From Escherichia phage ECO104 4-5-2, in sequence record OR844702: a DNA stretch of 43,051 nt; one strand, given 5' to 3'. How positions within the stretch are numbered: position 1 is the stretch's first letter; the number at the start of each line of letters is the position of its first letter. This document shows, one piece after another, positions 17,577-18,034 of this stretch. Below the pieces are notes generated by a model, which was not told where the DNA came from, did not search any database, and was given only the letters and a program-made list of their open reading frames with translations. Both the position numbers and the translations under genes were made by a program.

Positions 17577-18034
17577 ATGTACTCTGCGAAATATAGCTAT
17601 CGTGAGGATGGGCGCGTTGTGCGCCTTAAAGATGGCAGACTCGCTGATGAGTCTATTACAGTGGCAGGGTATCGTAGGGTATTCTGGATGCGTAACGGGA
17701 AGAAAACTTACGCAGCAGCTCACCGCGTTGTGTGGGAGCTTTGCAACGGTGCTATTCCTGAAGGGCTTCAGATAGACCATATAAACGGAATCAAGACGGA
17801 TAACCGTATTGAAACCTTAGGCTGCTGACTCAAGCAGAGAATCAACAAAATGTTCCCCGCAAGGGGTACTACTGGTATCCTAAAAATAATTGCTGGGGTT
17901 CTAGTATTTATATCAATGGTAAGAAGATATTCTTGGGACTGTTCCAGACGGAAGCGGAAGCAAGGGCTGCTTACTTAGCTGCTAAACGTGTTCATCACAA
18001 AGCAGCATCCACTTATGCATTTAAACCTATCTAA
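17577..18034 (+). pseudogene. HNH-AP2 homing endonuclease gene disrupted by a -1 frameshift
   Basis: Frame 0 gives ...IDHINGIKTDNRIE then stops at 17828. The expected continuation NLRLLTQAENQQN...GYYWYPKNNCWGSSIYINGKK...AEARAAYLAAK (AP2 domain) is in the next frame to stop 18034. The shift maps to the A-run at 17812-17814 (A3 where A4 is needed). Confidence 0.7.

Follow-up and report, generated by a model that had tools for sequence, protein, structure and literature searches.

An HNH-AP2 homing endonuclease gene, probably inactivated by a very recent one-base deletion, at the scaffold–capsid junction of a Slopekvirinae phage

Introduction

Homing endonucleases that join an HNH nuclease domain to an AP2 domain have been described as a family with members in phages, cyanobacteria and protists; they are encoded by the 'IPA-HNH' homing endonuclease genes (HEGs; Barth et al. 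2023, PMC10448857). Phage HEGs cluster beside essential genes, capsid genes among them, and frameshifts are frequent in them generally; in gp115/gp116 of phage ICP1, a frameshift parts the HNH half from the AP2 half (PMC10448857).

The gene analysed here lies between the scaffold and major capsid genes in a 43,051-nt contig deposited as Escherichia phage ECO104 4-5-2 (OR844702), which we call the window. It resembles ICP1 gp115/gp116 and the IPA-HNH HEGs in its predicted layout, with an N-terminal HNH and a C-terminal AP2 domain, and in the frameshift that parts the two; like the IPA-HNH HEGs it sits beside essential structural genes and varies in presence among close relatives. ICP1, however, is a myovirus whereas the window phage is a Slopekvirinae podovirus, and the likeness to the ICP1 proteins is taken from their published description. 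The ICP1 genes needed HHsearch, whereas the gene here scores well on the canonical Pfam HNH_3 profile. The nuclease part is also like I-HmuI of Bacillus phage SPO1: the N-terminal beta-hairpins and the HNH core are alike in sequence and fold, and the D-H...N...N residues correspond one for one. I-HmuI is intron-encoded and has a C-terminal helix-turn-helix DNA-binding region, whereas the phage gene is free-standing, AP2-like and frameshifted.

Results

Reading frames of the interrupted gene

A sequence-only reading of the window had described a frameshifted ORF at the scaffold–capsid junction, and both its coordinates and its reading proved exact (Table 1). From the start codon ATG at 17577-17579, the 0 frame encodes a product ending in ...DNRIETLGC, in which three wrong residues precede the stop (TLGC, stop). 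The -1 frame has its own stop, TGA at 17810-17812, and is then open from AAC at 17813 to TAA at 18032-18034; its translation runs from NLRLLTQAENQQN to AFKPI, and the full reading is NLRLLTQAENQQNVPRKGYYWYPKNNCWGSSIYINGKKIFLGLFQTEAEARAAYLAAKRVHHKAASTYAFKPI followed by the stop. One extra A in the run at 17812-17814 gives a joined ORF for a 152-aa protein, hereafter the repaired protein. Aligned back to the window by tblastn, this protein gave two abutting matches, in frames +3 and +2 (E 1e-52 and 5e-47). Throughout the 73 out-of-frame residues, the sequence equals the C-terminus of the intact protein P0123 (100% identity), a match far beyond chance.

Separate translation of the AP2 half was also considered and ruled out. 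The earliest ATG, GTG or TTG in the -1 frame is TTG at 17933, which leaves a product of at most 33 aa, without the beta-sheet; the AP2 part therefore cannot be made on its own.

Table 1. Features at and around the interrupted gene, and substitutions relative to Salmonella phage S.Kent 1-2-1, in window coordinates
Feature	Coordinates	Strand	Basis or remark
Head scaffolding protein gene, left neighbour	16705..17550	+	phrog_1018, E 9e-57
Shine-Dalgarno-like AAGGT	17566..17570	+	6 nt 5' of HEG ATG; read from sequence
0-frame ORF, 83 aa	17577..17828	+	N-terminal beta-hairpin region, first HNH part (D67, H68)
A3 run, site of 1-nt deletion	17812..17814	+	comparison with relatives
Premature TGA, 0 frame	17826..17828	+	sequence
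Remainder of gene, -1 frame, 73 codons and TAA	17813..18034	+	rest of HNH (N80, N89, N92), AP2-like domain
Intergenic spacer with capsid RBS AAGGA at 18042-18046	18035..18054	+	100% identical in HEG-bearing L011, L013
Major head (capsid) protein gene, right neighbour	18055..19047	+	phrog_267, E 1e-85
Capsid gene 5' end, which probably travels with HEG	18055..18200	+	site comparison; 18055-18094 too diverged for alignment
Segment without alignable S.Kent counterpart, 534 nt	17561..18094	+	HEG cassette and capsid gene's diverged first 40 nt
Mosaic tract centred on HEG, ~3 kb	15501..18581	.	154/228 substitutions vs S.Kent 1-2-1
Substitutions vs S.Kent, left of HEG	about 15501-17482		n=117
Substitutions vs S.Kent, right of HEG	18102-18581		n=37
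Substitutions vs S.Kent	21001-22500		n=71
Substitutions vs S.Kent	26001-27000		n=3

Domain architecture of the repaired protein

The same reading had called the gene an HNH-AP2 endonuclease, an identity borne out by a Pfam HNH_3 match, similarity to I-HmuI and an AP2-like fold. HNH_3 (PF13392) matched the repaired protein with E 1e-21 and 76.7 bits, the curated cutoff being 24.8, and matched the 83-aa product alone with E 2.6e-15 and 56.2 bits, covering profile positions 2-35 of 46. PHROG 99, 'HNH endonuclease', matched the repaired protein with E 3e-43. Residues 2-97 aligned by sequence to I-HmuI (1U3E; E 3e-9), with D67, H68, N80 and N89 opposite I-HmuI D74, H75, N87 and N96. Shen et al. are said to have assigned catalytic roles to I-HmuI D74, H75 and N96 in 2004.

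The AP2-like domain makes up the C-terminal 55 residues, and its sequence matches are weak: Pfam AP2 gave E 0.039 and 14.7 bits, under the cutoff of 33.3, and the TEM1 AP2 domain (7et4) gave E 0.0035 with the repaired protein. Precomputed PF00847 matches exist for several members of the HEG family. An AlphaFold model of the repaired protein, made with a 73-sequence family alignment as input, had a pLDDT of 95.8 and placed three strands and a helix at residues 98-140. In Foldseek comparisons, the best PDB fold match of the HNH part was I-HmuI (E 1.4e-6, probability 1.00, rmsd 2.5, 88 columns), and that of the C-terminal part was the TEM1 AP2 domain (probability 1.00, 34-39% identity). A C-terminal AP2-type DNA-binding domain is accordingly well supported by fold and weakly by sequence. 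Together, these profile, sequence and model-based matches point to an HNH-AP2 architecture: the gene is predicted to encode an I-HmuI-like HNH domain, that is, a beta-beta-alpha-metal nuclease domain, followed by a predicted DNA-binding domain of AP2 type.

The one-base lesion among related alleles

With the window and contig OR844938.1 (L010) included, 16 loci have the gene at this scaffold–capsid position. It is intact at the lesion site in 14 of the 16, as GAAAAC in five (L011-L015) and GAGAAC in nine (L002, L006-L009, L019-L022); the reading GAAAC is limited to the window and OR844938.1. The intact alleles nearest to the window are metagenomic, encoding P0123 (L013-L015; 97.8% DNA identity) and P0122 (L011-L012; 91.5%), the latter borne on a JGI contig. 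Both read ATTGAAAACCTT, that is, A4, and farther alleles (L006, L007, L019, L022, PWKp7, L008/9 and L020/21) read ATTGAGAACCT, as against ATTGAAACCTT in the window. The proposal that the gene is readable only through a -1 shift at the A-run thus agrees with the relatives, whose nearest intact members carry A4 at exactly this spot. Judged from this comparison, the lesion is a one-base contraction, A4 to A3, across codons E79-N80 (GAA AAC). Exact-pattern scans for the A3/A4 site in two contig collections, viral_contigs and metagenome_contigs, gave no match and weigh on neither side, the second collection lacking even the JGI contig with P0122.

The intact alleles share the insertion site of the window, in the gene order portal, scaffold, HEG, capsid. 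They comprise those encoding P0123, P0122, P0001, P0125 and P0126 on metagenome contigs (L006-L015, L019, L022) and the copies in Klebsiella Drulisvirus phages (PWKp1/2/3/7/9B; P0002, P0124). Their proteins are 81-98% identical to the repaired protein and 151-161 aa long; all are encoded in a single frame, and none has the A3 deletion. A gene elsewhere in the window, at 5013..5489, had been put forward as an intact paralogue for reference. The comparison was made, and with only 30% identity over 82 residues this gene is a distant family member and therefore of no help in reconstructing the frame.

Residues D67, H68, I69, R77, N80, L81, G121 and A129 are invariant in the 73-sequence family alignment, and N89 and N92 nearly so. 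Everything from N80 on is gone from the 83-aa product, so that the nuclease motif is halved and no DNA-binding domain is left. The beta-beta-alpha-metal motif, made up of a D-H general base, a structural Asn and a metal-ligand Asn, is incomplete in the actual 0-frame product, where N80 is replaced by T and N89 is absent. Without N80, N89 and the DNA-binding domain, this product cannot cleave or home.

Age of the lesion, and whether it is real

In the repaired frame, pN/pS among intact alleles is 0.04-0.22, indicating strong purifying selection. The out-of-frame part of the window's gene shows no decay: it differs from L011 by 19 synonymous changes and one non-synonymous change, and from L013 by a single synonymous difference 3' of the shift. 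Apart from the deletion, the only changes specific to the window over the whole gene are two synonymous ones and an E/D4A replacement. Either the mutation is real and, with its out-of-frame part still pristine, very recent, or there is no lesion at all.

The main rival to a recent mutation is that the phage truly has A4 and an intact 152-aa gene, and that the consensus lost one A of the homopolymer during sequencing or assembly. An error of this kind would give the same picture of a gene free of other decay, at exactly the spot where the closest intact alleles have A4; moreover, the window is unprocessed assembler output, its two ends duplicating each other over 77 nt, and belongs to a set of UNVERIFIED_ORG deposits with inconsistent host labels. 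On the other hand, NCBI has the 83-aa product from a second contig besides the window, OR844938.1. This contig (1,020 nt; assembly GCA_038430745.1) is 100% identical to window positions 17347-18366, A3 included, and overlaps OR844878.1 (Escherichia phage ECO121 2-1-1), which spans window positions 14685-17423 at a coverage of ~970x, by exactly 77 nt. From the accession range and this 77-nt overlap, we infer that OR844938.1 is part of a fragmented ECO121 2-1-1 assembly, distinct from that of the window; the A3 allele would then have been recovered twice, next to a contig of ~970x. Homopolymers of 4 nt are not error-prone in a high-coverage short-read consensus, as that of the window may be. With A3 present identically in a second contig, a real mutation becomes likelier and a sequencing error less so. 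The two deposited consensus sequences probably stem from one phage population and one study, and are independent libraries at best, not independent lineages; recovery of A3 in both argues against a random consensus error and does not imply evolutionary persistence. An artefact is accordingly the principal competing explanation, albeit an unlikely one.

Several properties of the deposits were noted along the way. Window positions 1-77 repeat 42975-43051, which reflects the k=77 assembler overlap of a circular assembly rather than a terminal repeat of defined length in the phage; Salmonella phage S.Kent 1-2-1 (OR850875.1), a circular permutation of the window, has the same 77-nt end artefact. 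Records in the OR84xxxx range named 'Listeria phage', 'Salmonella phage' and 'Escherichia phage' (UNVERIFIED_ORG, Turkish wastewater) contain 98-100% identical fragments of this one Slopekvirinae phage, so that either the host labels are unreliable or there was carry-over between libraries. OR850875.1 (L001/L003), OR849085.1 (L004) and OR844878.1 (L005) are among these records. The contig breaks near the HEG (17423 and 18366) are consistent with a mixture of variants with and without the HEG in one sample.

Frameshift expression or a retained function

The A3 template might still yield a low, controlled amount of full-length endonuclease through a programmed -1 ribosomal frameshift or transcriptional slippage. 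The geometry would permit it, because the -1 frame is open from 17813, just ahead of the 0-frame stop at 17826-17828, with a five-codon overlap (GAA ACC TTA GGC TGC), and a weak 5-bp hairpin lies 7 nt downstream. The overlap (17810-17828), however, contains no slippery heptamer of the form X XXY YYZ, which none of T GAA ACC, A ACC TTA, C TTA GGC and A GGC TGC fits, and A3 is much too short for transcriptional slippage. The downstream RNA fold (MFE -25 kcal/mol, z -1.88) is not clearly significant, 9 of 200 shuffles folding equally well, and there was no Rfam match. Nor is the interruption conserved: the same interrupted frame was sought in related phages, and 14/14 homologous loci outside this population carry the gene in one frame. 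Programmed frameshifting was rejected for want of a slippery heptamer, of a clearly significant fold and of conservation among homologues, and it is the least credible of the readings considered here. The ranking of the sequence-only reading, which had put decay or sequencing error ahead and held a programmed frameshift to be less likely, stands.

It could also be that the truncation is kept for a new role, either as an 83-aa DNA-binding, immunity or regulatory peptide or as the halves of a split enzyme. The N-terminal region of I-HmuI contacts DNA (PMC3428280), and other phage systems are known in which HEG domains were recruited as regulators (PMC10448857), both of which lend such a role some plausibility. 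Against it, the AP2 part has no usable start, the A3 allele is limited to one phage population, this split occurs in no homologue, and the near-twin S.Kent 1-2-1 does without the gene; a new role is thus very improbable. An equally slender chance attaches to a real A3 allele that is still alive, whether by trace production of full-length nuclease through non-canonical -1 slippage or by an 83-aa fragment that protects or regulates the junction. In that event, selection would have favoured the frameshift because it weakens a toxic selfish nuclease, and the gene would not be decaying.

Presence, absence and probable co-conversion of the flank

The window aligns with S.Kent 1-2-1 without gaps except in one place, where S.Kent 1-2-1, which lacks the HEG, has 86 nt of scaffold–capsid intergenic DNA and capsid start (OR850875.1, 34404-34489) instead of the window's 534 nt (blastn). 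The HEG is also absent from the LM 4-14-1 and LM 4-11-1 contigs; contigs with the HEG-less arrangement include OR849085.1 and OR847790.1. The gene is thus sporadically present at a fixed site among near-identical genomes, and it is found at the same site in 14 other loci. Whether it was gained or lost between the window and S.Kent 1-2-1 cannot be polarised. The stretch formed by the last codons of the HEG and the spacer (TATCTAACTTAAATAAGGA) shares homology with the intergenic DNA native to the HEG-less phage (TATCTAAACTTTAATCTAAGGA), which puts the insertion point just after the scaffold stop.

The HEG is better conserved than its surroundings. Between the window and L013, identity is 97.8% in the HEG, 87% in the last 150 nt of the scaffold gene and 76% in the first 100 nt of the capsid gene; it is 90% over the whole scaffold gene and 83% in the portal gene. 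Such a pattern is characteristic of an element that transfers between diverged genomes. Differences from S.Kent 1-2-1, 228 substitutions in total, are likewise concentrated around the HEG (Table 1).

At the right flank, relatives that carry the HEG side with the window: of the 22 positions in 18095-18200 at which the window and S.Kent differ, 16-17 have the window's base in these relatives and 3 have that of S.Kent. The encoded capsid N-terminus is SGN(S/T)TRVNWGGAQ...RFNYQ in common among genomes with the HEG, compared with APNISRPHWGGAN...RFQYQ in the HEG-less twin. The same N/Q contrast is seen in Drulisvirus, between the HEG-bearing PWKp7/L008 and KP34/KpV74, so that RFNYQ accompanies the HEG and RFQYQ its absence in two genera-level backgrounds (L002, L008, L011, L013, L017, L018). 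From these site patterns, we infer that the capsid 5' end was co-converted with the HEG; it may contain or adjoin the predicted target of the enzyme, or mark a target or immunity site. The left tract (15501-17482) was also considered as HEG donor DNA and rejected, because relatives with the HEG do not side with the window there (56 versus 46 sites); HEG-linked co-conversion would therefore be confined to the right flank.

A second mosaic tract relative to S.Kent, at 21001-22500, falls in the tail tubular protein B gene (20016..22328), with no indel and no HEG nearby; it looks like recombination with a diverged relative. Outside the two mosaic tracts, the window and S.Kent differ at only 3 positions.

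Occupants of the scaffold–capsid site

The suggestion that this junction is an HEG hot spot holds within Slopekvirinae, where the site is variable and HEG-occupied. Four forms were found: empty, in KP34 and S.Kent; occupied by the present HEG, in 16 loci that include five GenBank Klebsiella phages (PWKp1/2/3/7/9B); occupied by a different HNH-AP2-like gene, in KpV74; and occupied by an unrelated 63-aa hypothetical ORF, in Escherichia phage PAS7 (OQ921331.1; L016, 2193-2384). 'Hot spot' is a fair term for the junction within this subfamily, and its occupancy agrees with the reported clustering of HEGs beside essential genes (PMC10448857). The HNH endonuclease gene of Klebsiella phage KpV74 (kpv74_40) has the same site and the same HNH-AP2-like layout, but is only 44% identical to the gene described here, which points to an independent or long-diverged occupant.

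A different insertion was seen between the portal and scaffold genes of L020 (ENA ERZ15185448 NODE_8, 44,801 nt), where a 91-aa gene at 1350-1625 has a Tad2-like (anti-Thoeris) Pfam match; the portal–scaffold spot of the window has no counterpart of it.

Other HNH genes in the genome

The window contains three more HNH-type endonuclease genes (3468..4010, 5013..5489 and 10586..11320), all of which are also present in S.Kent. GC content is 42.6-45.4% in all four HNH genes, compared with 48.0% for the genome and about 51% for structural genes. The gene at 5013..5489 lies directly 3' of ORF 4097..5026, with a 14-nt overlap, and this ORF has a partial DNA polymerase profile match only (e.g., phrog_17 positions 982-1233 of 1445); the polymerase gene therefore appears to be split by an HEG. 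The 244-aa ORF 10586..11320 is fusion-like: the PHROG 'nucleotide kinase' families align through their C-terminal end with residues 1-69 (phrog_236 positions 237-304 of 431, E 1e-28), and an HNH endonuclease match (phrog_59, E 2e-23) covers residues 69-231. The ORF 5' of it, 10164..10589, encodes endonuclease VII and not a kinase.

Discussion

The evidence is best explained by a mobile HNH-AP2 homing endonuclease gene that has, in all likelihood, been inactivated by a very recent A4-to-A3 deletion. The gene would be a free-standing HEG that occupies the short gap separating the scaffold gene from the major capsid gene in a T7-like phage of the Slopekvirinae (Autographiviridae). Where a copy is intact, its enzyme would presumably cut genomes without the HEG close to the junction, recombinational repair would copy the gene in, and homing would drag along the first ~100-150 nt of the capsid gene; the endonuclease activity, target site and homing of the intact alleles are all predictions drawn from the comparisons above. 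One A of the A4 run would then have been lost in the lineage of the window's phage, so that translation ends after 83 residues and the product should be without N80, which is invariant, without N89, the putative metal-ligand Asn corresponding to I-HmuI N96, and without the DNA-binding domain. The frameshift may represent the first step of degeneration in the selfish endonuclease cycle of invading, degenerating and being lost.

A nearly identical case is already published for ICP1 gp115/gp116, and the gene described here is ordinary and unsurprising to specialists. For annotation, both ORF fragments belong in a single entry, a pseudogene of an HNH-AP2 homing endonuclease, or an intact gene should the reads support A4; a short 'HNH endonuclease' followed by unannotated DNA is to be avoided. 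The alleles form a natural series within one phage group, in which the site is empty in S.Kent 1-2-1, occupied by A4 alleles of up to 97.8% identity, and, most probably, freshly inactivated in the window. This series could be used for mapping the target and measuring co-conversion in Autographiviridae, where the capsid 5' end appears to be visibly co-transferred with the HEG.
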